Below, piece after piece: positions 4,612 through 40,279 of a stretch of 64,000 nucleotides of DNA. Numbering within the stretch: position 1 is the stretch's first letter; the number at the start of each line of letters is the position of its first letter. The notes beneath the pieces are model-generated. The model was not told the DNA's origin. It ran no database searches and was given only the letters and a program-made list of their open reading frames with translations. Source of the stretch: an uncultured Methanosarcinaceae archaeon (GTDB lineage: Archaea > Halobacteriota > Methanosarcinia > Methanosarcinales > Methanosarcinaceae); NCBI GenBank assembly GCA_963727895.1, contig CAVSHT010000003.1:32001-96000 (forward strand), given 5' to 3'. Made by a program: the position numbers and the translations under genes.

Positions 4612-6540
4612 TCATTTGTATATATATCTATCTTTTGTAGTTAATTTACTTTTACCTACAGGTGTGATCACAGTAACATCAACTGTTCCTTTCTTTCCTG
4701 CAGGAGCAATTACAGAAATCTTTGTATCGGATGTAACAGTTAGCTTACTAACTGATACACTTCCGAACTTCACAGCAGTTGCACCTGTAAATCCAGATCC
4801 ATAGATAGCCACATGATTTCCACCTTTAGTAGATCCAGAAGAAGGAACTAATGAAGTAACTTTTGGTGTTACTTGTTGATATGTGAACTTATCGTTATCA
4901 GAAGTAGAGCTTGTGCCAGTAGGCGAAACTACAGTGACATCAACTGTTTCTGTTCCTGCCGGTGAGGTTGCAACGATATGAGAGTCATCGATAACTTTGA
5001 CACCAGTTGCAGCTTTGCTTCCAAACATAACTTTCTGCACTTCATACAAGTTCGTTCCTGTTATGGTTACCTTTGTACCACCATTTATCGGACCTACACT
5101 CGGTGTAACACTGTCAACTACAGGATTTGGTTTAAATACAAAATAACCTTGCCAAGGATCACTTATTCCACCAGTTGATGTAACTACTACTGACGCATAT
5201 CCGGCATCCTCTTGTGGTGTAATTGCTTTGATTTGAGTATCAGAGATAAAGGTTATCGCTGTGGCTGGGAAGTCCCCAAACATCACTTGTGATATGCCTG
5301 TGAAACCAACACCTTTTAAAGTTACAACTGTACCGCCTTCTGTTGGGCCTATAGCTGGTGATACGCTATAGATTTTTGGATGTGCTATATATGTATATTT
5401 ATCTCTGCTTGAATTAACACTTACTCCACCGGCTGCAGTTACCTGGATGTCAAAAGTTTTTGGAGCTCCTGGTTGAGTAGTCAATTGTGGAACCGTTATG
5501 CTTATTTTATTGTCGGTAACACTTAGGATCGTAGCAATTTTAGAACCAACAACCACTTTAGATGCTCCAGTAAATCCGTATCCAAGTATATCAATTGTGT
5601 TGCCACCATCATATGAGCCAGTTGTAGGTGTTATACTAGTAATGTATGAGACCTGTACATAGGTATACTGGTCAGCAGAGCTGGTACCGCTAGTTCCAAA
5701 TGGGGTTGTAACAGTAACATCGACTGTTCCAGTTCCAGCTGGAACGGTTGCAGTAATCTTGTTGTTATTAACCACGATGACATTTGTAGCTGGGGTAGCT
5801 CCAAAGTTTACATTTGTAGCTCCGGTGAAATATGATCCAGTAATGGTTACTTTATTTCCACCATTAACTGAGCCAGATTTAGGAGATACACTGCTTACTG
5901 ATGGGGCTGTTCCCCATGTAAACTTACTGTTCACCCAAGGCTGGCTTAAACCAGCAGGGGTTTCAACTTCAATGATAGCATTATCACCAAGAGGCCCAGC
6001 AGGTGCAGTTATCGTTATTTGGTTGTCATTATCGACTACCAGGTTTGTACCCAGATATTGCTGACCAAAATGCTGACCAGTAGGATTACTGTCAATAAAA
6101 ATAACTTTATCTGCGCCAGTGAAATACGATCCGCCTATTGTTACTTCCGTGCCTCCTGTGCTTAAACCTATCAAAGGTGATACATCACTGATTGAAGCCA
6201 CTGGCATGTATGTATACAAATCAGCTGAGGTTTCTGAACTCGTTCCTTCTGATGATGTGACATGTACATAGACTTGTCCATAATCCGTTCCAGCGGGGGC
6301 ATTTAATGTAATAGAACCATCATTTACTATACTAAAACCAACTGCTGTTCCTCCAAAATCAACTTGTGTTGCACCTAAAAATCCAGAACCCGTTATAGTC
6401 ACAGCATTTCCTCCGGCAAGTGGGCCGGCACTAGGATGAATACCAGTGACTGATGGTGTCGCTGCTGCAGTTGCAGTTGTTGCAAAAACCACAAGCATGA
6501 ACAATGTCAATGCAAATAGCATATTTCGCTTACTATTCAT
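4612..6540 (-). CDS. Secreted multi-IPT/TIG-domain surface protein
   Basis: Signal peptide then about 7 repeats 'P.V..VSP..G...GG..VTITG..F.GA..V.FG'; start taken as MNSKR after a GAGGT RBS. Confidence 0.88.
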   Translation of the reverse strand: MNSKRNMLFALTLFMLVVFATTATAAATPSVTGIHPSAGPLAGGNAVTITGSGFLGATQVDFGGTAVGFSIVNDGSITLNAPAGTDYGQVYVHVTSSEGTSSETSADLYTYMPVASISDVSPLIGLSTGGTEVTIGGSYFTGADKVIFIDSNPTGQHFGQQYLGTNLVVDNDNQITITAPAGPLGDNAIIEVETPAGLSQPWVNSKFTWGTAPSVSSVSPKSGSVNGGNKVTITGSYFTGATNVNFGATPATNVIVVNNNKITATVPAGTGTVDVTVTTPFGTSGTSSADQYTYVQVSYITSITPTTGSYDGGNTIDILGYGFTGASKVVVGSKIATILSVTDNKISITVPQLTTQPGAPKTFDIQVTAAGGVSVNSSRDKYTYIAHPKIYSVSPAIGPTEGGTVVTLKGVGFTGISQVMFGDFPATAITFISDTQIKAITPQEDAGYASVVVTSTGGISDPWQGYFVFKPNPVVDSVTPSVGPINGGTKVTITGTNLYEVQKVMFGSKAATGVKVIDDSHIVATSPAGTETVDVTVVSPTGTSSTSDNDKFTYQQVTPKVTSLVPSSGSTKGGNHVAIYGSGFTGATAVKFGSVSVSKLTVTSDTKISVIAPAGKKGTVDVTVITPVGKSKLTTKDRYIYK

Positions 6541-10162: not shown

Positions 10163-11218
10163 ATGGATAAACGATTTTTAGTGCTTATTACACTACTGAT
10201 ACTATTATCAAGTTCTGGAATATGTATTACAGCTGCTGAATCATCAAGTGGTAACTCCACAAATACGGATACTGTTAGTAATGAATTAACTAGTACTGGA
10301 TCAACTGATGATAATTCAATAAGTGATAATTCGGTAAATGATACTTATGTAGATAATGCCTCTACAGACAATACTTCTATAGATGATACCTCTACAGATA
10401 ATAATTCAGTAAGTAATGTTTCTACAGATGACACTTCTGTAGATAATGCTTCTGCAGATAATAATTCAGTAAGTGATGTTTCTACAGATAATAATTCTGT
10501 AGATGATGCTTCTGTAGATAATAATTCTGGATATAGTACTTCTACAGAAACTAATTCTGAAAATAACGCATCAACTGCAAGTAACCTGACAAATGAAAAT
10601 GAGTTAAACTCATCTGAACCACAGACTAATATTCAACATACAGAAATAAGTCAGGTATATATCAATAATTCACAAAATGTAAACATAAGCATTACAAACT
10701 ACAATTCGGTTGTCAATAACATAAACTTCGATGCAACAAAATCTTTAGGCAAGACTACTGTTGTTGTGGAGGATCTAAAAGATAAATCTCACTTAATTAA
10801 TAATCCACCTACAGATAATATCTACAAGTCATTCAATATATGGATCAACAACGGAAATATAAATAATAATTATATTAAAAACACAGTTGTTAATTTCCAA
10901 GTTGAAAAATCATGGCTCAAGAAGAACAATTTTAAAAACTCAGCTATCGTCCTGAATAGATACAGTAACGGGAAATGGATAAAAATACCTGTGACCATAA
11001 CAGGATATAATACAAAGTATGTATATTTCAAAGCTAAAGTTTCTGGCTATTCTTCATTTACAATAACCGGAAAAACAGATCAGGCAACGGTAACTACAAA
11101 GCCTATACAACAAGTAAACAGTAATTCTGTATCCAGTAATTCTGGATCTCAGAATGAGATTATACGTCTTTTAAATGAAATCATAAATCGTTTGGATGAA
11201 ATCATTAAACTGATATAA
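10163..11218 (+). CDS. PGF-pre-PGF domain surface protein with Asp/Asn/Ser/Thr pentapeptide repeats
   Basis: 'KTTVVVEDLK', 'IYKSFNIW', 'FQVEKSW', 'YVYFKAKVSGYSSFTITG'; 15-bp repeats ~10310-10540. Confidence 0.85.
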   Translation: MDKRFLVLITLLILLSSSGICITAAESSSGNSTNTDTVSNELTSTGSTDDNSISDNSVNDTYVDNASTDNTSIDDTSTDNNSVSNVSTDDTSVDNASADNNSVSDVSTDNNSVDDASVDNNSGYSTSTETNSENNASTASNLTNENELNSSEPQTNIQHTEISQVYINNSQNVNISITNYNSVVNNINFDATKSLGKTTVVVEDLKDKSHLINNPPTDNIYKSFNIWINNGNINNNYIKNTVVNFQVEKSWLKKNNFKNSAIVLNRYSNGKWIKIPVTITGYNTKYVYFKAKVSGYSSFTITGKTDQATVTTKPIQQVNSNSVSSNSGSQNEIIRLLNEIINRLDEIIKLI

Positions 11219-11677
11219 TAAATTTCGTTTTGCAGTACTGTGTAGTTTACAAATCTGATTAGACTACACAACACCTGCTAAACAATATATTTTTCAGCAT
11301 TGGTAGAATAAAATTGATCATGCCTATTATAATATAGACAAGCGTCTGTGCGCCCGAGACGACAGACAAGACAAAACCCTTAAGAAAAATCGTAAATTTA
11401 CTGAGTTTCTTAGGATCCTTCAAAATCATTGAGCCTTTAATAATTCCTCAATCGAAACTCACTGTGACCAAGTCACGTACTTTACCAAATTAATTTCAAA
11501 ATAGATTTTCTTAATTTCTTTTTTATAATTTTATTTTTATATATTATACACTAACCGTATTAAATTTAGACCATTTTTAGTCAACCCTTGACTTTAATCT
11601 TAGAAGACTTTTTCATTTATTATCAGGATTTCATGAGATCCTTGTTTTTGCTTTCAACCTTCTTTCTGGCTTGTCTG

Positions 11678-12355
11678 TTACGCAGTTACTGTCTGTTCCG
11701 GTGAACCTGTCAACCATAATTCTTCAGTTGGAATTTGTCTTGCGAAAATCAACCTTAGCTCTTTTCTGCCGTGGTCTGCTTTATCGATGAATATATCATT
11801 AGTAGAACATCTCTTTTCAACTGTATCAAAAACGTCACGTTTTAGTTTTCTCAGATTCTTTGTAGACTCAGGCTGGTATTCCTTAGGTAGATAATTTTCA
11901 ACGAATTTTTTAAAATTCCTTGAATCCATTATCCTGGAATCTATATTTGCAAACGGTGAAACCGCCTTAGGAAGGTCTGTACTTTTTTTCATGTAGTCTA
12001 TTAAAAAATCTGCACGAATCTCAGTAATATTCTTAGAAGGAGAAATTAGAGATCGGTCAAGGATTTCAGGCTTTAATGTAGTGTTTATTTTAGACACCAT
12101 ATCATATAGCCTGGTTATATGATCTGGAATCGTGGGTTCGTGGTCTTCATCATCATAAGAAAAATCATCAATTCCTAAAACAGTTTCAATTTCTGCAAGT
12201 CTCTGAACTGGTTTTATCTCTGAAGTTGCTAGTCTCGCGTCAAAAGAGGTGTTTACAAATTTATCCATATAAGGAGCAATCAAATCCACAAATTCTATCC
12301 TTTCCGGTTCAGATGCGTTTTTAAAGGCTTGACTGATATCTGACAGGGAAATCAT
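11678..12355 (-). CDS. Hypothetical protein, cassette copy A
   Basis: 225-aa ORF; close paralogs at 25071-25757 and 38482-39189. Confidence 0.85.
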   Translation of the reverse strand: MISLSDISQAFKNASEPERIEFVDLIAPYMDKFVNTSFDARLATSEIKPVQRLAEIETVLGIDDFSYDDEDHEPTIPDHITRLYDMVSKINTTLKPEILDRSLISPSKNITEIRADFLIDYMKKSTDLPKAVSPFANIDSRIMDSRNFKKFVENYLPKEYQPESTKNLRKLKRDVFDTVEKRCSTNDIFIDKADHGRKELRLIFARQIPTEELWLTGSPEQTVTA

Positions 12356-12447
12356 AGATATCTTTCCCCCATTCCTATGATCTCGAGAAATTCTTGATCA
12401 GAAAATAGAGGAATATACTTTATATGTACATAATCAGCGAGGCTCAT
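12352..12447 (-). CDS. 31-aa leader ORF MSLADYVHIKYIPLFSDQEFLEIIGMGERYL coupled by an ATGA overlap
   Basis: GGAGG RBS upstream; TGA overlaps the ATG of the 225-aa gene; identical at 25754-25849; homologous to the first 31 aa of ORF 38482. Confidence 0.65.
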   Translation of the reverse strand: MSLADYVHIKYIPLFSDQEFLEIIGMGERYL

Positions 12448-12948
12448 TTTAAGCCTCCTGTATAAAAACAGTTTTTAGAAGTGCTAAAAATTCATTTATT
12501 TTGCTATCCTGTTCAGTACGATCGAAAAGTTTATACCTATCGGTGTCTATATAACTACTAAGCAATGTTATCCCTCTTATACTGGGGGTCAGGGTTCTTT
12601 GTTGGAAGCGCGGAACCCTGCCAATTAATCTTTTTTATAACTAAAAAGAGTCAATTATATTAAAACCTGTTTCTCCATTCTTTTTACTTGTTCTCTTCTT
12701 TTATTTTTTAGATATTCAAAACATGTTCATTTTTTTGCAGTTGAAATTTCTCCTTACAAAAATAAGCTAAATTCTTGAAAATTTCTATGGAAAAAAGAGA
12801 TTTTAGTCAAATTTTTCTTGAGGATTAGATATTGGGGAATTTAAATCCGGCTAAAATGAGTGTCAATGCCGGTGAATAATTCCTCATTTTAGCCGGATTT
12901 AAATTCCCCAATATCTAATCCTCAAGAAAAGCTTGAGGATCGTAAATA

Positions 12949-14185
12949 ATGCTGAAAATGGAGGAATGGCTATTGATACGAGATTTGTATTCACAAGGCT
13001 TTAGCATCAGTGAAATCGCCAGAAAAACAGGCTTTGACAGGAAAACTGTGAAGAAATATATTCGGCTGAAAACCTTGCCTGAGCCCCAGAAACGTCCTGG
13101 AAGAAAGAGCAAGCTTCAAAACTTATATTCTTGAAAAACTCAAAGAAGGTTCCTATACTGCTGCTCGCCTATTTCGTGAAATAAGAGAAATGGGTTTTGA
13201 TGGAGGAAAAACCATAGTCAAGGACTTTGTACAAAAAGTTCGACCTGAGCAGGAAACCCCTGCTGTATTTCGCTACGAAACAAAACCAGGTGTACAGGCT
13301 CAGGTAGACTGGGGAAAGATGGGAACAGTTGAAGTTGATGGAAAAACAAAGAAACTATTTTGCTTCAACATGATTCTTGGATATTCAAGAATGAGATATG
13401 TTGAATTTACACTGAGCATAGACACTCCAACTCTAATTCAGTGTCATTTGAATGCTTTTGAGTATTTTGAAGGATTTACACAGGAAATTCTCTATGATAA
13501 CATGAAACAAGTTGTTATCAAAAGAGCCTTAAAATCATCAGATTCTAAATGGAACTCACAGTTTGAGGATTTCTTCAAATGCTTTGGTTTTATTCCCAGA
13601 TTATGCAGGCCTTACAGGCCTCAAACAAAAGGTAAAATTGAAAATACAGTAGGTTACGTCAAAAGGGATTTCTTCCTTGGAAGAAGGTTTACCTCTCTTG
13701 AAGAACTGAATGGCCAAGTTAACAGTTGGTTAGAAAAAGTAAATTCAACTGTCCATGGAACAACCTATCAAATCCCTCTTGAATGCTTTAAGGAGGAGGA
13801 CCTGAACCCTCTGGGTCAGGTTCCTCCTTACAAAGTTGTTCAGAAGGAGACCAGAAAGGTCTCCGGATACTGTTATATTTCATTTCTTGGAAATAAGTAT
13901 TCTGTTCCTTACAGGTATGCAGGAAGAACTGCAGAGATTCATATTTTTGAAGAAAAATTAGAGATCTATGTTGATTATGAAAAGATCTGTGAACATGCAA
14001 TTCTCCCAGGTAACTGCAGAGTTTCAAGGAAAAAGGAACATTTCCAGGGTTTACTGAGTGAGATTCTTAAAGAGAACTCAAAATGCAAGAAAAATTCACA
14101 GATTCCGTTGAAATCCTCAGGTCCTGAAGTTGAAAAAAGGTCTCTTGATGTCTATGAAATATTTAGCCAGGGAGGTTTTGAATGA
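12949..14185 (+). pseudogene. istA: IS21 transposase IstA, frameshifted near 13115
   Basis: HTH 'SISEIARKTGFDRKTVKKY' in one frame; 'ETKPGVQAQVDWG', 'ILYDNMK', 'PQTKGKIE' in the next. Confidence 0.9.
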
Positions 14186-14954
14186 ACAATTTTAGCTATG
14201 GGAGGCTTCACAACAATCTGCAATACCTGAAACTGAATACTGTTGAAGAGCTCCTTGACAACTTTCTTGAAATTGTTGTAAGGGACAACAAGACAACAAT
14301 GGAAGTTCTTGATTATCTATTTGAACAGGAAAAGAAACACAGAGAAGCTGTTGCAATTGAGAGAAAGATGAAAAGTACAGTTTTTCCTATTAAAAAGACT
14401 CTTGAGGAATTCTATTTTGAGTTTCAGAAATCCATTGATAAGAAGATAATCGAAGACCTTGCAACCTTGAGATTTGTTCATAATTCAGAGAATGTTGTTT
14501 TATTTGGTCCATCAGGTGTTGGCAAGTCTCACCTTGTAATTGCTCTTGGAATCGAAGCAGTAAAGTCGGGGATTTCGGTTTACTTTACCAATACAGGAAA
14601 CCTTATTGAAAGGTTGAAAACAGCAAATCAAGAAGGAATGCTTGAAAAGAAACTCAGGGACTTGATGAAGTATAAAGTGCTGATTATTGATGAAATAGGA
14701 TATCTCCCATTTAACGAAGAAAGAACTCACTGTTTATTTCAGCTAATCTCAAGACGTTATGAAAGGAATTCAATGATCTTAACATCGAATAAGTCGTATG
14801 GAGAATGGGAGAGATATTCAAGGACCATGTAATAACGGCTGCTGTGCTTGATAGGCTTCTCCATCATTCTACGACGATTAATATCAAAGGGGAAAGTTAC
14901 AGGCTGAAAGAAAGGAAAAAACAGGGTATAAAAACAGGAAATCTATACCAGTAA
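14182..14954 (+). pseudogene. istB: IS21 helper ATPase IstB, frameshifted near 14810
   Basis: Walker A GPSGVGKS, 'LIIDEIGY', 'LTSN'; tail 'AVLDRLLHHS..INIKGESYRLKE' continues in another frame. Confidence 0.9.
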
Positions 14955-15050
14955 TTTTTAACAAGTTCATGAAAAATTGAATAAACTTTATATCACAAAG
15001 TGGGGAAAATTAATCCGGCCAAAATGGGGAAAAGTAAACCGGCATTGACA

Positions 15051-15253
15051 ATTGCAAATCTCATTATGGGGCGATCTTTTTCTGCACGCATATTTAAAGA
15101 TGAAATTAATGCTGCGAAGCCTATCAATATAAGGATAACAAGGTTATTTATACCATACACAAACAACCCTATTATACCAATGAGTATCATTAAAAAAGAA
15201 ATAATAATGCCAATGGTACCCCGTTTTTTCATATTAACTTTCGAGCTTCGCAT
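15051..15253 (-). pseudogene. Small membrane protein truncated by the IS21 right end
   Basis: Two hydrophobic helices; ORF runs into the IS terminus. Confidence 0.4.
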
Positions 15254-21595: not shown

Positions 21596-21745
21596 GGTTC
21601 CGTTGCAAAAATAATTTTTCTGTACGTTGAGGTTATTCTTCGTTCCTTAAAATATCATTTTAATCCATATGTACTCACCAAACTTATCTTATTGTGAAGG
21701 TTTTCAACGATTTTGTAAAATGCTCTGATTTTTTGCAACGGAACC
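21596..21745. mobile_element. 150-bp IS6-ended MITE
   Basis: IS6 IRs at both ends; inverted copies at 22373-22519 and 23449-23598. Confidence 0.85.
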
Positions 21746-22372: not shown

Positions 22373-22519
22373 TGTTCCGTTGCAAAAAATCAAAGCATTT
22401 TACAAAATCATCGAAAACCTCCACAATAGGATAATTTTGATGAGTAAATTTGGGTTAAAATGACATTTAAAGGAAAGAAAAATTACCTCAAAGTACAGAA
22501 ATTTTTTTGCAACGGAACC
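22373..22519. mobile_element. IS6-ended MITE, second copy
   Basis: IRs at both ends; similar to 23449-23598. Confidence 0.8.
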
Positions 22520-23448: not shown

Positions 23449-23598
23449 GGTTCCGTTGCAAAAAATCAGAGCATTTTACAAAATTGTTGAAAACCTTCAC
23501 AATAAGATAAGTTTGGTGAGTACATATGGATTAAAATGACATTTTAAGGAAAGAAGAATAACCTCAACGTACAGAAAAATTATTTTTGCAACGGAACC
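23449..23598. mobile_element. IS6-ended MITE, third copy
   Basis: Near-identical inverse of 21596-21745. Confidence 0.85.
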
Positions 23599-23605
23599 TA
23601 GGCTC

Positions 23606-23869
23606 ATCTATAAAGCGAATCGTTAATCCAATGTTAGGATTTCAGTCTTTTCATACAGCCATTAAAACTTTAAAAGGAATTGAAGCGATGAATTTGATTA
23701 AAAAAGGACAAGTCAAGAATCTAAATTACTCTGGCTTTAATGGAGCTAAATATATTAGTCAATTATTTGGAATAGTTCTATAATATTGACGCATCTTTTT
23801 GAATATTTTAACTTTTATTCATTATTCATAGATTTACAGGCTTATTCTAAGATTTTTTGCAACGGAACC
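23606..23869 (+). mobile_element. IS6 3' fragment with IR
   Basis: Encodes 'SIKRIVNPMLGFQSF...QLFGIVL'; IR ends 23869. Confidence 0.85.
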
Positions 23870-24004
23870 CTTGAACCCACACTTTCCGCAAGAGCCATTG
23901 CCGAAAGACTTAATATAGGAAAAGATACGGCGCTAAAAGCTATAAAATACATTAGAGATTCAAGAGCCTCCAGGTATCAAGAAAAAACGCCTGGATTAAT
24001 ATGA
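23870..24004 (+). pseudogene. C-terminal HTH remnant of a gene cut off by IS6
   Basis: 'LSARAIAERLNIGKDTALKAIK' is an HTH pattern and starts right at the IS6 IR. Confidence 0.55.
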
Positions 24005-25070
24005 ACTACTTTCTTCAAAATTTTTACTTTTTTTTATTTTTCCAGAAATACACTTCTTTTTCGCAGACAGTTTTTAGACTGTTGCTTTCATACAAACACT
24101 ATGCGTACACTTCTTACAAACATTTTACTTATCATCTCATTTTTTGTGTCTGCTCCAATAAAACCAGTATCAGAAGGAAAAAATGACTTGTTACTTATTA
24201 CTAACTAGACATGCGTCTGAGAGTAGCAGACAGACAGACAAAACGAAAATTGCTTTTTGCTAGTGGTGGAAGGATTGAGTTTTAAGGGGAGTTTTTCTAA
24301 AGAGTTGCAGAAATGGCTTTGAAGATTTTGAAACATGCAAGCCATGCGAAAACGCTATCATTGGAAACAGACAGGTGGTCTTTTTTGTATCTCTAAATGA
24401 TTATATAGACGTGCAAGGCACAAGGAGCAGCCAGCCAGAAGAACACACCAATATTTCAACGAATCAGCCGATATTATTGTAAACATTTTATATATATTTA
24501 AACACATATAATATAATCACTTACTAAAAGTTTTGTTACCATTAAAAACATTGCAGGAGTTCTCTATCACCTCTCCTACACCCTCCTGATGAAGCCGTTC
24601 GTCTTTGGGCGACACTTCCTGCTGTTAGGGTTTTTCAAGCTTTCCCTGACAGCACACTCCTCTTTTCCTCTCATTATTTTCTAAAGCAACAGAAATCCTA
24701 CTTATGGATCTTGAAGAGCACATACCCCCCTATTCTAAGGCTATAGGAAAGGTTTAAAAAAATGGTAAGGTGGTAATTTGCTTATGGCTCAGGAGTTTGG
24801 GGCTGTAAGGGCAAATCTGAGGCGTTTGTTTTAGTCCTTGAAATGTTGTAACCAACTGTGACCAGGTAACGTACTTTACAAGATTTATCTCAAGATTAGT
24901 TTTCTTAATTTCTTTTTTATAATTATATTTTTATATACCCTACACTAATCGTATCAAATTTAGACTATTTTCAGTCAATTCTTAACTTAAATTTTAGTAG
25001 CTTTTCTTTTTAACGGTGGGATTTCATGAGATCCTTGTTTTTGCTTTCAACCTTCTTTTTTGCTTGTCCG

Positions 25071-25757
25071 TTACGCAGTTACGGTCTGTTCCGGTGAACC
25101 TGTCAACCACATAGGCAGTTCTTCATCTGGGATTTGTCTTGCGAAAATTAATCTAAGTTCGTTTCTGCCATGATCTGCTTTGTCAACAAAAATATCATTA
25201 GTGGAGCATCTCTTTTCAGCAGCTGCGAATACATCTCGTTTTAGTTTTCTCAGATTCTTCATGGATTCAGGCTGGTACTCCTCAGGTAGATAATTTTCAA
25301 CGAATTTTTTAAAATCCCCTGAATCCATTATCCTGGTATCTATATTTGCAAAAGGAGATGCAGCTTTAGGAAGCATGTCCTTATTGTTTTTTATATACTC
25401 AACGAGAAAATCAGCGCGAATTTCTGTGATATTTTTAGAAGGAGAAATTAGAGATCGATCAATAAGTTCAGGCTTTAATGTAGTGTTTATTTTAGACACC
25501 ATATTGTTTAGCCTTGTAATTTGTTCAGGGATGGTAGGTTCGTGGTCTTCATCATCATAAGAATAGTCATCAATTCCAAGAGCAGTCTCAATTTTGGCAA
25601 GTCTCTGAACTGGTCTTATCTCTGAAGTTGCTAGTTTCGCGTCAAAAGAGGTGTTTACAAATTTATTCATATAAGGAGCAATCAAATCAACAAATTCTAT
25701 CCTTTCCGATTCAGATGCGTTTTTAAAGGCTTGACTGATATCTGATAGGGAAATCAT
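25071..25757 (-). CDS. Hypothetical protein, cassette copy B
   Basis: 228 aa; paralog of ORFs 11678 and 38482. Confidence 0.85.
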   Translation of the reverse strand: MISLSDISQAFKNASESERIEFVDLIAPYMNKFVNTSFDAKLATSEIRPVQRLAKIETALGIDDYSYDDEDHEPTIPEQITRLNNMVSKINTTLKPELIDRSLISPSKNITEIRADFLVEYIKNNKDMLPKAASPFANIDTRIMDSGDFKKFVENYLPEEYQPESMKNLRKLKRDVFAAAEKRCSTNDIFVDKADHGRNELRLIFARQIPDEELPMWLTGSPEQTVTA

Positions 25758-25849
25758 AGATATCTTTCCCCCATTCCTATGATCTCGAGAAATTCTTGAT
25801 CAGAAAATAGAGGAATATACTTTATATGTACATAATCAGCGAGGCTCAT
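25754..25849 (-). CDS. 31-aa leader ORF, copy B
   Basis: Identical to 12352-12447; RBS and ATGA coupling. Confidence 0.65.
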   Translation of the reverse strand: MSLADYVHIKYIPLFSDQEFLEIIGMGERYL

Positions 25850-26424
25850 TTTAAGCCTCCTGTATAAAAACAGTTTTTAGAAGTGCTAAAAATTGGTTTA
25901 CTTTACTATTCTGTTCAATACGATCGAAAAGTTTATACCTATCGGTGTCTATGTAACTACTAAGCACTAATATCCCTCTTATACTGGGGGTCAGGGTTCT
26001 TCGTTGGTAGCTTGGAACCCTACCAAATTAATCTTTTTTATAACTAAAAAGAGTCAATTATATTAAAACCTGTTTCTCCATTCTTTTTACTTGTTTTCTT
26101 CTTTTATTTTTTAGATGTTCAAAACATGTTCATTTTTGTGCAATTGAAATCTACCCTTAAAAAATAAGCTAAATTTGTGAAAATTTATATGGAAAAAATA
26201 GATTTTAGTCAAGCTTTTCTTGAGGATTGGAAATTTGGGAATTTTAATCCCGGCCAAAATGAGAAATTATTCACTGGCCTTGCCACTATGAATTAAAAGA
26301 AGCTCTCAAAATCGCAAAATGTGCGTGTAAACTATATTCAGAAGAATACCACATTGAGAAGATAAGGAATAAAAAGTGTGATTGGAAACTTGTATATGTC
26401 TCTAAAATGAAAAAAATTAGGAAA

Positions 26425-26934
26425 TTATAATGTATAAGTATCAGTTTCGGTTAGAAAATCGATAGTGTCATATGTTGAATATAATTGATTCAAGATTGCT
26501 TCATAATCCGGCATCGGAGTTTTTCTTTGGTTCTCAACCAATTCTTTGAATCTTTTTGACATTTCATGGGGAAGTTCTATTAACTTCAGAGCCTTCACTA
26601 TGCCCGTCATTCCATCAATTAAAACGACTTGGACCGTATAACCTGTCTTCTTGTCTGTAAGTTCTTGTAATTCATAAGGCTGTGATAGAGCAACATTATA
26701 AGGTGTATCCATCCAGGGTAAATGTCCGAATTTAAAAAGAAGAAATATAATTCTTTTTTCTTCAATGAGCCTGAGTTTTATTTCCCCATCTTTGATTTCT
26801 TTAATTTCCGAATCAAGAGGACTATCAAAGACTATCTGGAGAAAGCCACCACCTTGATTGAAAAAGAAAGTGAAGCCTTCAGGAATTCGTTTTAATCCTG
26901 CATGATATGGTTTTCCTACTTCTAATTATTGCAT
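26425..26934 (-). pseudogene. Hypothetical protein with a stop at codon 3
   Basis: ATG CAA TAA, then an open frame 'LEVGKPY...FKFGHLPWMDTPYN' in frame with ORF 26425-26712. Confidence 0.6.
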
Positions 26935-27867
26935 ATTGGATACATTTATGTTCAGAATGTTAACTCTTGTGTTTTTTTCTCTTTTATCTGGAAGTTCTTT
27001 AACATAAAATAAAAAAGAATATAATGGCTCTGTAGAAGTCTTGGTTCCGTTGCAAAAATCTCAGAATAAAAATATAAATTATTACAGGATATGTGTGATA
27101 TCATAACTCCATGTTCAGTATATCTATAACTGGATCTTCTAGTTCTTCGAGTTCTTTAAGTTCTCTTTGAATATCTGCAGTAGTTATTTTCGAGTATCCC
27201 ATATGACTTAAAAAGCATCACTAGATTATAAATGTTGCTTTTTAAGAGAATATCTGCTTCAAAACCCGAGATTTTACTGAAAATTGTGAGAAAAAGGCAA
27301 CAAATTGACCAAAATGTTGTCTTCTTGAGTAAAAAAGTTTTACCTCAAAAACCTCTGTATCATAAATTAGAATTTACAGAACTTTTGATTACTGCCAATT
27401 CAAAACTATAGTTCTATATATTGGAGAAAATTATTGCATAACCATGCCCGACTTTTTTGAGAATTTTCTCTCTAATTTAAAAAGAAAAATTCCACTTTTG
27501 AATAAAGATTACGTAACTTCAGAATTCGTTCTTGGAGTATTGATGCACTTATTCCTTTTTATTTGCATTATTACCTTATTGTATTTACTATCAATACATT
27601 TGCAATTGTTATCTTCAACGTAGGCGTATGGTAGGGTCTCAAATCCTCTATAAAATTCACTCCATATTTTATGCATAGATTAAAACCCTTGCATAAGCGT
27701 GATTATTCCGTTCAAATTCTTTGTTATAATATTCACAGATATATAAACAAAAATCACAGGTTATGCTATAAAACCTATATATTCTTTCACTTCAGTTGCA
27801 ACATTTCTAATTCTAGAAAATACAAAATTATTTTAGGATAAAACAGTTTACAATTCAAAATTTAAAG

Positions 27868-37514: not shown

Positions 37515-37956
37515 GACTCATTATATTCAAACACATATTATAAAAATAGATTCAATGTATCTCAAAGAATTGATTTTTTAGCTCTTGTAAGATCTCACAA
37601 AGATAGCTACGTTTTACCTCAAAAAGTTCGTATCTTGAATTATCCTATAAAATTAGAATTTTAGATTATTTGCTGCATAACAGAGTTTACTTTTGCCATA
37701 TAATTTTTGCAACGGAACCGTTCATATTATAGCAAAGTTCTACTAAGAGCCTATCCGAAAAGTAGAAGAACTGCATTTTAGGGTAATATTGAGTAGTGAC
37801 ACCACGAAAGATTGTTTTTCCATCTAATTTTTTTAGATAGATCTAAACGTTTCAGAAATTTCGTAAATATTTAGACATCAATATCAAAGAAAATTTAGAT
37901 TTAAAGTAAGAATTTATGATCAAAAATTGTAATGTCAAGAAAACGATATAAATTCT

Positions 37957-40279
37957 TGTCAAGGCCGGTTTACTTTTCCCTATTTTGGCCGGATTAATTT
38001 TTCTAGAAATGAATGCAGTGTACTTAATTTTAATTCCGGTGAATAATTCCTCATTTTAGCCGGGATTTAAATTCCCAAATTTCCAATCCTTAAGAAAAGT
38101 TTGACTAAAATCTCTTTTTTCCATATAAATTTTCAAGAATTTAGCTTATTTTGTTAAGGGTAGATTTCGATTGCAAAAAAATGAACATGTTTTGAATATA
38201 TAAAAAATAAAAGAAGAAAACAAGTAAAAGAATGGAGAAACAATTTTTATATTATTGAAACCTTTCTTACTTAAAAAAGATTAATTTAGTAGGGTTCTTC
38301 GTAGCCAGCTTAGAACCCTGACTCCCCGTATAAGAGGAATAAGTATGTATACACTTAGTAATAACATGGGTACCTTAGGGTATAAAGTTTTCGATCGTAC
38401 TGAACAGGATAGCAAAATAAATGAATTTTTAGCACTTCTAAAAACTGAGAAATACTGTTTTTATACAGGAGAGGACTTCTTATGAGTCTCTCGGATTATG
38501 TGCCTATTGAGTTTATGCACTTTTTTGAACAACCTGGAATTGTTGAAGCTCTTAAAGGTTTTGCAAGATATCTGATTAATGAAGATCCAGAATTCAAAGT
38601 TGAACTTAAAACAAAATTTGATGCTCATCTTCTCACATCCGAGGTAGAGCCTGTGCAGAGATTATCTAGTATTGAAACTGTTTTGGGAATTGATGACCTC
38701 TCGTATGATGATGAAGACCACGAACCTACTATTCCAGATCATATAACCAGGCTATACGACATGGTCTCTAAAATAAACACAACATTAAAGCCTGAACTTA
38801 TTGATAGATCACTTGTAGCACCTTCTAAAAATATCACAGAAATTCGCGCGGATTTTCTCGTTGAGTATATGAAAAAAAGTACAGACCTTCCAAAGGCGGT
38901 TTCGCCGTTTGCAAATATAGATACACGGGTTCTGGACTCCAGAGATTTTAAAAAATTTGTTGAAAACTATCTGCCTGAAGAATTCCAGCCTGAGTCTACG
39001 AAGAACCTAAGAAAACTTAAGCGTGATGTGTTTGAGGCTGCGGAGAAAAGATGCTACACTAATGATATTTTTGTTGACAAAGCAGATCATGGCAGAAACG
39101 AACTTAGATTAATTTTCGCAAGACAAATCCCAGATGAAGAACTGCCTATGTGGTTGACAGGTTCACCGGAACAGACCGTAACTGCGTAACGGACAAGCAA
39201 AAAAGAAGGTTGAAAGCAAAAACAAGGATCTCATGAAATCCTATCGTTAAAAAGAAAAGTTACTAATATTAAAGTTAAGCATTGACTGAAAATAGTCTAA
39301 ACTTAATACGATTAGTGTAGGGTATATAAAAATAAAATTATAAAAAAGAAATTAAGAAAACTAATTTTGAGATAAATCTTGTAAAGTACGTTACTTGGTC
39401 ACAGTTGGTTACTACAATATCTCAACGACTAAAACAAACGCCTCAAATTTGCCCCTACAGCCCCAAACTCCTGAGCCGTAAGGAAAAATTACCTCACCAT
39501 TTTTTCAAACCTTTCCTAGAGCTTTAAAAAAGGGGAGTATGTGCTCTTCAATATCAATAAGTAGGATTCCCGTTGCTTTAGAAAATAATGAGAGGAAAAG
39601 AGGAGTGTGCTGTCAGGGAAAGCTTGAAAAACCCTCATAGCAGGAAGTGTCGCCCAAGGACGAACGGCTTCATCAGGAGGGTGTAGGAGAGGTGATAGAG
39701 AACTCCTGCAATGTTTTTAATGGTAACAAAACTTTTAGTAAGTGATTATATTATATGTGTTTAAATATATATAAAATGTTTACAATAATATCGGCTGATT
39801 CGTTGAAATATTGGTGTGTTCTTCTGGCTGGCTGCTCCCTGTGCCTTGCACGTCTATATAATCATTTAGAGATACAAAAAAGACCACCTGTCTGTTTCCA
39901 CTGATAGCGTTTTCGCATGGCTTGCATGTTTCAAAACCTTCAAAGCCATTTCTGCAACTCTTTAGAAAAATTCCCCTTAAAACTCAACCCTTCCACCACT
40001 AGCAAAAAGCAATTTTTTGTTTGTCTGTCTGTCTGCTACTCTTAGACACATGTCTAGTTAGTAATAAGTAGCCAGTCATTTTTTTCTTTTGATCCTGGTT
40101 TTACTGGAGCAGACACAAAAATGAGATAATAAATAAAATGTTTGTAAGAAGTGTATGCATAGCGTTTGTATGAAAGCAACAGTCTAAAAAACTGTCTGCG
40201 AAAAAGAAGTGTATTTTCTGGAAAAAGAAAGAAAAGTACAAATTTTGAAGAGAGTAGTTCATATTAATCCAGGCGTTTT
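37957..40279 (+). mobile_element. Copy C of the cassette, preceded by an isolated IS21 right end (37957-38003)
   Basis: TGTCAAGGCCGGTTTACTTTTCCC matches the inverse of 15001-15050; left-end remnant from 38036. Confidence 0.72.
38482..39189 (+). CDS. Hypothetical protein, cassette copy C (leader-fused form)
   Basis: 235 aa; GGAGAGG RBS; paralog of ORFs 11678 and 25071 with a different N-terminus. Confidence 0.85.
   Translation: MSLSDYVPIEFMHFFEQPGIVEALKGFARYLINEDPEFKVELKTKFDAHLLTSEVEPVQRLSSIETVLGIDDLSYDDEDHEPTIPDHITRLYDMVSKINTTLKPELIDRSLVAPSKNITEIRADFLVEYMKKSTDLPKAVSPFANIDTRVLDSRDFKKFVENYLPEEFQPESTKNLRKLKRDVFEAAEKRCYTNDIFVDKADHGRNELRLIFARQIPDEELPMWLTGSPEQTVTA

Follow-up and report, generated by a model that had tools for sequence, protein, structure and literature searches.

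At least eight copies of a putative regulator gene of archaeal mobile elements, with a conserved 3′ site array and a relic-like IS21 end, in an uncultured Methanosarcinaceae genome

Non-autonomous derivatives of insertion sequences (IS) that carry passenger genes have two inverted ends and consistent limits. In the IS21 family, IstA binds several sites per element end, as described in PMC10122671, and the model of IS26-type units (PMC4196232, PMC7986276) comes from bacteria. For the pleolipovirus SNJ2, an archaeal provirus, PMC10123103 describes Orf4 as a small winged-helix lysogeny repressor with a palindromic site of action. The subject here is a repeated gene, coding for 225–235 amino acids (aa), in a stretch of 64,000 nucleotides (nt), hereafter the window, from an uncultured Methanosarcinaceae archaeon (GenBank assembly GCA_963727895.1; contig CAVSHT010000003.1, here C3, positions 32001–96000). 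Positions below follow the numbering of the window unless another contig of the assembly (C4, C5, C8, C12, C14) or C3 itself is named. An earlier reading of this DNA, made from the sequence alone and called here the sequence-only reading, had proposed that an IS21 end, the gene and a non-coding tail form a mobile cassette. With somewhat better than even confidence, the present analysis favors another account, in which the copies are selected relics of a regulator gene of mobile elements that was spread by segmental and IS-mediated recombination, the IS21 end being a leftover.

A repeat search of the window and BLASTN of the whole genome recovered the block at the three places where it had first been seen, copy A, copy B (23985–26285, −) and copy C. 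The identity is 87.8% across 1411 nt between A and B, 90.9% across 1635 nt plus 81.4% across 485 nt between B and C, and 82.0% across 772 nt plus 81.3% across 471 nt between A and C (BLASTN). The unit of copy B extends past both of its earlier limits, from 23985 to 23870 and from 26285 to 27042. BLASTN against the whole assembly and a six-frame protein search raised the copy number from three to at least eight plus one fragment. The copies and their open reading frames (ORFs), including a helix-turn-helix (HTH) ORF remnant, are as follows.

23870..27042, −: full extent of copy B, with an IS6-family end tip on either side; delimited by the flanking IS6-type inverted repeats and the B–D homology; holds a 95-aa ORF, the IS21 left end and the upstream DNA, then ORF B with its 3′ site array, the tail and the HTH-ORF remnant
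25071..25757, −: ORF B, 228 aa; predicted helical N-terminus, acidic linker and C-terminal winged helix (residues ~100–209)
11323 (approximate)..12860, −: copy A; ORF A 11678–12355, 225 aa; upstream DNA 12356–12806; 3′ array 11463–11689
38028..40279, +: copy C; ORF C 38482–39189, 235 aa, type-2 N-terminus; upstream DNA 38105–38481; 3′ array 39178–39403
C4:80701–81384: copy D
C4:37081–37782: copy E
C4:4823–5530: copy F
C14:37084–37767: copy G
C14:4179–4763: copy H
C4:20320–20457: gene fragment, 46 residues

Seven of the copies are full-length (225–235 aa), including the three in the window, whose intactness had already been remarked and which lie near a frameshifted istA. In copy H, a frameshift interrupts the N-terminal module, and 194 aa of core remain open. 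The IS21 end is present in five of the eight copies (A, B, C, D and G) and absent from E, F and H.

The protein, in which the sequence-only reading had recognized no motif, matched no named family. No Pfam, NCBIfam or PHROG family scores above threshold (all hits stay below it, for example DZF_N with 19.4 bits where 27.1 are required), none of 59 diverse family members scanned against Pfam reaches the cut-off, and searches of the PDB by sequence were empty. Relatives at E ≤ 1e-3 comprise 43 among 208 candidates, all without a name or called "hypothetical", and 195 cluster representatives within 1.84 billion clusters, 124 of which reach ≤ 1e-10. Within the order, the gene occurs in 11 of 284 genomes (this one included), all of one genus, and the relatives in the other 10 genomes are 27–38% identical, several of them being fragments with internal stops. 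No relative was found by tblastn against phage and plasmid collections or by a scan of IMG/VR, and a protein atlas search gave a top score of 0.78 and no lead. Literature searches on Methanosarcina IS21 and other insertion sequences and on proviruses and pleolipoviruses turned up no description of the gene or the cassette. A scan of species-representative genomes with narrow peptide patterns yielded one locus (L021), on a contig labelled as an Acidobacteriota metagenome-assembled genome. The neighbours of this locus look like those of the archaeal loci (Hsp20, and IS pieces matching the window), and mis-binning or transfer may be involved.

The second AlphaFold model, built on a 59-row alignment, has a predicted local distance difference test score (pLDDT) of 88.8 and a predicted template modelling score (pTM) of 0.62. 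In it, an acidic linker, modelled with lower confidence, joins N-terminal helices to a C-terminal domain of residues ~100–209, the predicted topology of which is helix-strand-helix-helix-strand-strand. Nearly all of the 50 rows listed in the structure search align residues ~100–209, the great majority to winged-helix domains. The best match has a Z of 7.8 with a root-mean-square deviation of 3.3 across 91 residues, none reaches Z 8, and the first model gives the same picture. Residues ~100–209 are thus predicted to form a winged-helix domain, which concerns the fold only and says nothing on function. Foldseek returned no match at E ≤ 1e-3 against the PDB or against viral models; among its weak rows are the RepE and Pi initiators (probability 0.28–0.44, E 0.2–0.3).

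A set of short DNA motifs accompanies the gene at its 3′ end, where all eight copies have ~215 nt in common after the stop codon.

24857..25082, −: 3′ site array of copy B; GTAAC pentamers over the stop codon (25066–25082), palindrome (25019–25034), GTNAC cluster (24857–24872)

Throughout the family, down to ~30% protein identity, GTNAC pentamers stand at the stop codon, two or three in number, spaced by ~10 and 8 bp and usually followed by GGAC. One subgroup has them over its last codons, and they account there for the conserved C-terminal TVTA; in another they lie directly after the stop; the pentamers stay in place whether coding or not, and the constraint is therefore on the DNA. An antisense peptide of 23 aa, hydrophobic and lying over the stop codon, was tried as another explanation and rejected; it is found in close copies and is not kept in distant relatives. 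The conservation at the stop codon is again one at the DNA level. The 16-bp palindrome GGATCTCATGAAATCC, with up to three mismatches, is present in 23 of 38 distinct family loci, at +36 after the stop or at +54–57 where the pentamers are post-stop, and A/T-rich, TATA-like DNA follows it directly. In this genome, each of the eight copies is followed by the GTAAC and palindrome motifs and six of them also by the distal GTNAC cluster, while the only other genome matches to the array motifs are two 2-mismatch palindromes, at C8 and C12. Judged from these motifs, the array may consist of putative protein-binding sites, most simply for the winged-helix protein itself, on a downstream-facing promoter. 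The putative DNA binding of the protein is suggested by the predicted fold together with an array that travels with the gene.

A transcript-like sequence was found in the RNA library of one metatranscriptome run, as a 756-nt contig of ~91% identity that spans 25019–25766 and corresponds to the ORF plus 52 nt, ending at the end of the palindrome. This contig stems from a relative or another copy and shows only that such sequence is present in the RNA library. No contig of the RNA libraries fell on the tail, which does not mean that the tail is silent.

The neighbours of the gene outside the window indicate the kind of element it comes from. Copy H lies divergent beside six ORFs (C14:5595–12735; 133, 605, 94, 326, 289 and 938 aa) that are 91–95% identical (the 94-aa ORF, 55%) to the neighbours of a homolog on metagenome contig L031. 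Of their products, the one of 605 aa has matches in a pectate-lyase-like domain and the tail-spike family PHROG_2234, and the one of 938 aa in AAA_10 and the terminase-like PHROG_2666. This six-gene module occurs once more, in broken form (C4:15171–20283), beside the gene fragment on C4. Compared with the phage collection, nothing above 22–25% identity matches the module. The spike-like (beta-helix) ORF beside copy H is split in two, and a 53-codon ORF at ~5106–5267 (−) of locus L066 (C14), AbrB/SpoVT-like by eye, lies between copy H and the module. Metagenomic homologs have neighbours of a similar kind: in L032 and L033, an ORF-free stretch of ~2.1 kb that leads to a D5-type primase-helicase; in L022, a ParB-like gene ahead of the homolog; in L026, a DUF5906 protein; and in L044, L050 and L051, YopX, PcfJ and RNA-ligase genes. 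Near-identical variants of the gene also exist on metagenome contigs. Because copy H and the metagenomic relatives adjoin such modules, the gene can be assigned, from gene content, to archaeal virus- or plasmid-like mobile elements, in line with the virus or plasmid origin that had been suggested for the module. The 133-aa ORF to the left of copy C did not align with the 133- and 124-aa ORFs of L031 and L037.

Such surroundings also raise the idea that the gene and its 3′ array are a minimal replication or partition module of a plasmid or virus, with an initiator or centromere-binding protein and iterons, and that the cassettes are remnants of integrated mini-replicons. The GTNAC pentamers are iteron-like in their helical spacing beside the gene and have A/T-rich DNA behind them, and the long ORF-free stretch before the primase-helicase in L032 and L033, the ParB-like neighbour in L022 and the weak Foldseek rows to RepE and Pi point in the same direction. 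It is nevertheless regarded as very unlikely, since the protein has one winged helix and RepE-type initiators have two, neither sequence nor fold searches gave a significant match to an initiator or a centromere-binding protein, a chromosome would hardly tolerate eight origins or centromeres, and a palindrome directly before a TATA-like stretch fits an operator better.

The copies have been maintained over a long time. In the conserved core, the 28 pairs of copies have ratios of nonsynonymous to synonymous substitution rates (dN/dS) of 0.06–0.23 (median 0.11) and synonymous distances (dS) of 0.30–1.18; the copies are therefore old and under purifying selection. The earlier proposal that the module was amplified and kept under selection thus holds for the selection, at a dN/dS of about 0.1, and the dS values argue against a recent amplification. 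In sliding windows, the closest partner of a copy changes every 60–200 nt, and the identity between B and D is 100% in one 60-nt window and 64% in another. In runs tests on eight triplets with 10000 permutations each, no permutation reached the observed clustering in six triplets, and four and six did so in the other two. The copies are mosaics formed by gene conversion, which agrees with the mosaic structure first noticed in the proteins. The Jukes–Cantor distances of the IS21 end, the upstream DNA and the 3′ DNA, 0.05–0.39, are well below the synonymous ones, and these flanks are therefore constrained or often converted; the IS21 end alone has diverged by 0.08–0.14 between copies.

The DNA between the gene and the IS21 end records the history of the N-terminus.

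25758..26208, −: conserved upstream DNA of copy B; hairpin, type-3 remnant (~25919–25940) and 31-codon type-2 remnant (from 25849)

On metagenome contig L030, a type-3 N-terminus is in use. Copy C uses a type-2 N-terminus, with a type-3 remnant ahead of it, and copies A and B have type-3 and type-2 remnants followed by a type-1 N-terminus, the stop of the type-2 remnant overlapping the ATG in use. The order of remnants is the same in copies D and G, where the type-3 remnant carries a deletion. These nested remnants show the replacement of a protein module step by step. Part of the upstream DNA (nt 167–382 of the B query) is 68% identical in another genome of the set (G247), where it precedes a relative of 37% protein identity; the upstream DNA is therefore the native leader of the gene and not IS21 DNA. 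A leader hairpin, GGGTTC-N15-GAACCC, lies at 25994–26020, 12592–12618 and 38292–38318; in A, B, C, D and G its stem is invariant and its loop variable, and L030 has a variant.

At the outer side of the leader stands the IS21 sequence, with the following features in the window.

12861..15051, +: IS21-family element, limits taken from other genome copies; istA frameshifted (12949–13134, 13190–14185), istB 14182–14832
26209..26285, −: IS21 left end of copy B, 77 nt, tip at 26285; both IstA-type repeats damaged by substitutions and a 1-nt insertion
38028..38104, +: IS21 left end of copy C, with a degenerate tip
12807..12860, −: IS21 left end of copy A, positions 23–76 only
37956..38001, +: isolated fragment of an IS21 right end, 46 nt; has the orientation of the copy C left end and lies 27 nt outside it
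26425..26712, −: 95-aa ORF beyond the IS21 tip, common to B and D; PHROG_12389, E 9.8e-11

The statement that each block opens with the left end of this IS21 holds in full for B and C, and for A with positions 23–76 only. The IS21 left end common to the blocks extends over 76 nt and no further, and contigs of IS21 proper part from B at 26209. In copies A, B, C, D and G, and likewise in L030, the protein of which is 67% identical, the inner junction of IS21 end and cassette falls on exactly the same base, and this points to one ancestral fusion. Beside copy A, the full IS21 abuts the block head to head. It has no target duplication, suggesting that the site was rearranged once the element had inserted. 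The two head-to-head ends (12807–12936, that of the cassette lacking its first 22 nt) make a 130-nt near-palindrome; the microRNA-type Rfam matches at 12804–12937, far below the gathering score, are an artefact that arises because these ends form a hairpin. IS21 itself has two IstA-type repeats, GCCGG-N7-TTCCYC, in its left end and two in its right end. Among the copies, the repeats are exact in G only, have one mismatch each in D, are damaged in B and C, and are half missing in A.

The wider context of the block is rich in another IS family, which contributes some of its outer limits.

23851..23869, −, and 27043..27061, +: IS6-type inverted repeats flanking copy B, tips facing the segment

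The window has 29 IS6-type ends (GGTTCCGTTGCAAAAAATC, up to three mismatches) where 0.01 would be expected, the genome has 290, and three ORFs of the window match DDE_Tnp_IS240. Several pairs of IS6 ends are ~150 nt apart (e.g., 21596–21745, 22373–22519 and 23449–23598) and look like miniature non-autonomous IS6 derivatives. Four copies lie in segments of 2.5–5 kb between IS6 tips (B 23870–27042, D C4:79459–81943, E C4:35738–38305, F C4:3669–8719), and A, C, G and H are not bracketed by IS6 ends on both sides. The IS6 sequence beside B is a 267-nt piece only. Beyond the IS21 tip, B and D have ~780 nt in common, including the 95-aa ORF and the same IS6 junction, the B–D homology reaching that junction at 27043. 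Spread by segmental duplication or recombination is thus partly shown, by the IS6 ends that bracket four copies and by the IS6 junction of B and D. On metagenome contig L029, the DNA found downstream of A, including its PGF-pre-PGF gene, stands behind an E-type upstream region without an IS21 end, and homologous exchange between copies therefore re-sorts the flanks.

Against this background, the sequence-only reading of a non-autonomous IS21 cassette can be weighed, according to which a left end with a passenger gene is moved in trans by IstA/IstB and the second end is cryptic, lost or borrowed. The fixed inner junction in five of eight copies and L030 agrees with it, as do the commonness of IS21 in the genus (matches in 34 of 59 genomes, nearly all only over nt 2–82) and the IS21 copies or fragments at or beside the cassette end in A and C. 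However, no inverted second IS21 end and no IstA-type repeat of one was found in the 7–9 kb scanned around each copy, the searches using the 25-nt core (up to five mismatches), the 13-nt tip (up to two) and the repeat motif (up to one). The right-hand limits vary among tail positions ~215–238, 355, 691, 1090 and 1205, where they are set by IS6 or other insertions, the flanks of B and D run on together beyond the tip, and dS is at least 0.3 between all copies. Three copies and most relatives elsewhere are without the end, B and C have damaged repeats, and no intact istA was found in the assembly, which is 84% complete and has several IS21 copies at contig ends. What stands of the IS21 capture is an end fused at one junction in part of the copies; what does not stand is the end as driver of a mobile unit. 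Homologs elsewhere largely lack both the IS21 end and consistent boundaries, the picture that the sequence-only reading had itself associated with plain segmental duplication. The IS21 end looks like a relic and not a working transposon end, mobilization of the cassette by IS21 is not supported, and the cassette reading as a whole is considered unlikely.

Several facts nonetheless weigh against the account favored here, in which relics of a regulator gene were spread by segmental and IS-mediated recombination. Four unrelated left flanks (G, B/D, C and L030) begin at or a few nt from the IS21 tip, as they would at a live transposon end, although recombination between a block and the left end of an IS21 copy elsewhere could equally give rise to new flanks that start right at the tip. 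Both IstA-type repeats are exact in copy G, and the low divergence of the IS21 end, below that of synonymous sites, is left unexplained if the end is a relic. The IS6 bracketing may be incidental, IS6 ends being so dense here, further copies or an intact IstA/IstB are possibly absent from the incomplete assembly, and the support for expression is the one contig from a single RNA library described above.

The non-coding tail, described as closely shared by B and C over about 1.1 kb, is 94% identical between them across ~1090 nt.

24005..24856, −: tail part 2, non-coding, common to B, C and E (94–95%)
23867..24001, +: 3′ half (residues 46–90) of a small convergent HTH ORF, which has 90 aa in copy E; weak HTH_11 match

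The copies fall into groups by their tails: B, C and E share ~1205 nt, parts of which are found in F and D; A and G run together to 355 nt, after which G has a ~125-nt repeated sequence; and H diverges at 238 nt. The tail was rejected as a decayed gene, since it shows no codon periodicity (substitutions of 40/32/29 per codon position) and its indels, of 1, 2, 3, 4, 29 and 139 nt, do not go by threes. It has no iteron structure, and searches of the other 58 genomes of the genus gave only chance-level short matches. Pieces of tail without the gene occur at C5:339590–341177 (behind pdxS/pdxT), C3:27866–28243 and C14:74498–74688. The tail ends in the HTH ORF, which in B is cut by an IS6 end, and IS6-family ends are inserted at three different points beside or inside this ORF in B, E and F. 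Because of the pieces without the gene, the IS6 cuts and the non-coding character, the conserved 1.1-kb tail is best taken as a composite and not as one functional unit. Within it, a block of ~100 nt (~24500–24600, −; 39660–39760, +; C5:339590–339968) is ~95% conserved and persists in the tail-only copy behind pdxS/pdxT, itself 75% identical. This block has a stem-like complementarity, GCAGGA...TCCTGC, and no Rfam match; it could be a small structured RNA.

A further possibility is that the copies are separate integrations of related viruses or plasmids that decayed to little beyond the regulator gene. Copy H and the fragment at C4:20320–20457 still lie beside the virus-like module, the combination of high dS and low dN/dS fits divergence in free-living element lineages, and relatives are found on varied mobile elements, with near-identical variants on metagenome contigs. 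Yet five copies have in common the IS21 junction and the nested N-terminal remnants, B and D have the same IS6 junction, and B and the tail fragment at C3:27866 share an identical truncation of the HTH ORF. No integrase or att repeats were seen beside any copy, which was looked at in passing only. Separate integration is accordingly given a low probability.

The remaining features of the window agree with a methanogen-type genome, MC1, DUF1699 and PGF-pre-PGF genes being present; a tRNA search of the window found none. The downstream DNA of copy A passes collinearly into the PGF-pre-PGF gene.

10163..11218, +: PGF-pre-PGF surface-protein gene, with a 15-nt (5-codon) Ser/Asp/Asn-rich tandem repeat at 10286–10570; the same gene is also downstream of the homolog on L029
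40380..41468, −: transposase (rve/DDE) of another IS, starting ~100 nt beyond the cut of the copy C tail at 40279

Taken together, the favored account may be put as follows. The core of each locus is the ~230-aa gene, with a swappable helical N-terminus, and the ~215 bp of conserved 3′ DNA. The protein would be a putative site-specific DNA-binding regulator of virus or plasmid elements, a repressor or immunity factor, which probably binds its own 3′ array; a role as an origin or partition adaptor is the less likely alternative. Orphan copies may stay intact since the host or resident elements profit from them. A single fusion, ~215 nt ahead of the ancestral start, may have brought the 76-nt IS21 left end into the lineage from which five of the eight copies derive, as the identical junction and the nested N-terminal remnants suggest. 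Spread and reshuffling would then have proceeded by segmental duplication and recombination in an IS-saturated island, and short-tract gene conversion between copies reshuffled them further. A bolder form of the idea, which is rather doubtful at present, is that the gene and its array are a self-contained module from methanogen viruses kept by the host in many diverged copies as a repertoire of superinfection-immunity repressors, with N-terminal stacking and gene conversion giving new specificities and with spread via IS21 and IS6 ends.

If the favored account is true, the family is an undescribed group of regulators of archaeal mobile elements, with ~195 sequence clusters, no Pfam model and a recognizable cognate DNA array. 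The eight selected copies retained in one methanogen genome would then represent host retention of provirus regulators, and the family would offer a handle on methanogen virus–host regulation, a field with very few known regulators. What transposon biology gains is mostly a negative result: a single IS21 end beside a repeated gene does not suffice to call a mobile unit.

Compared with known systems, the locus resembles IS21-family elements, which encode the IstA transposase and the IstB ATPase, in that the first 76 nt of five copies are the left terminal repeat of such an element, while the copies have no istA, no istB and no inverted second end. It resembles mobile insertion cassettes and other elements like miniature inverted-repeat transposable elements in the association of an IS end with a non-transposase gene in several copies, but here there is one end only and the outer limits are variable. 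Copies B, D, E and F, as segments between IS6 ends, are similar to IS26/IS6 pseudo-compound transposons and translocatable units; in contrast to IS26-type units, many of the flanking IS6 sequences here are fragments or 150-nt miniature pairs, and the copies are old. Iteron-binding initiators such as RepE and Pi also have short repeated sites beside the gene and gave weak winged-helix matches in Foldseek, but they have two winged helices, not one, and the E values are far from significant. SNJ2 Orf4 differs from the present protein, in which a long helical N-terminus precedes an acidic linker and for which the site array lies 3′ of its own gene. It may nevertheless be the closest functional analogue that can be named, by a resemblance in kind: Orf4 is a winged-helix provirus protein with a palindromic site, and here a winged-helix gene stands beside a virus-like module and has a conserved palindrome next to promoter-like DNA.

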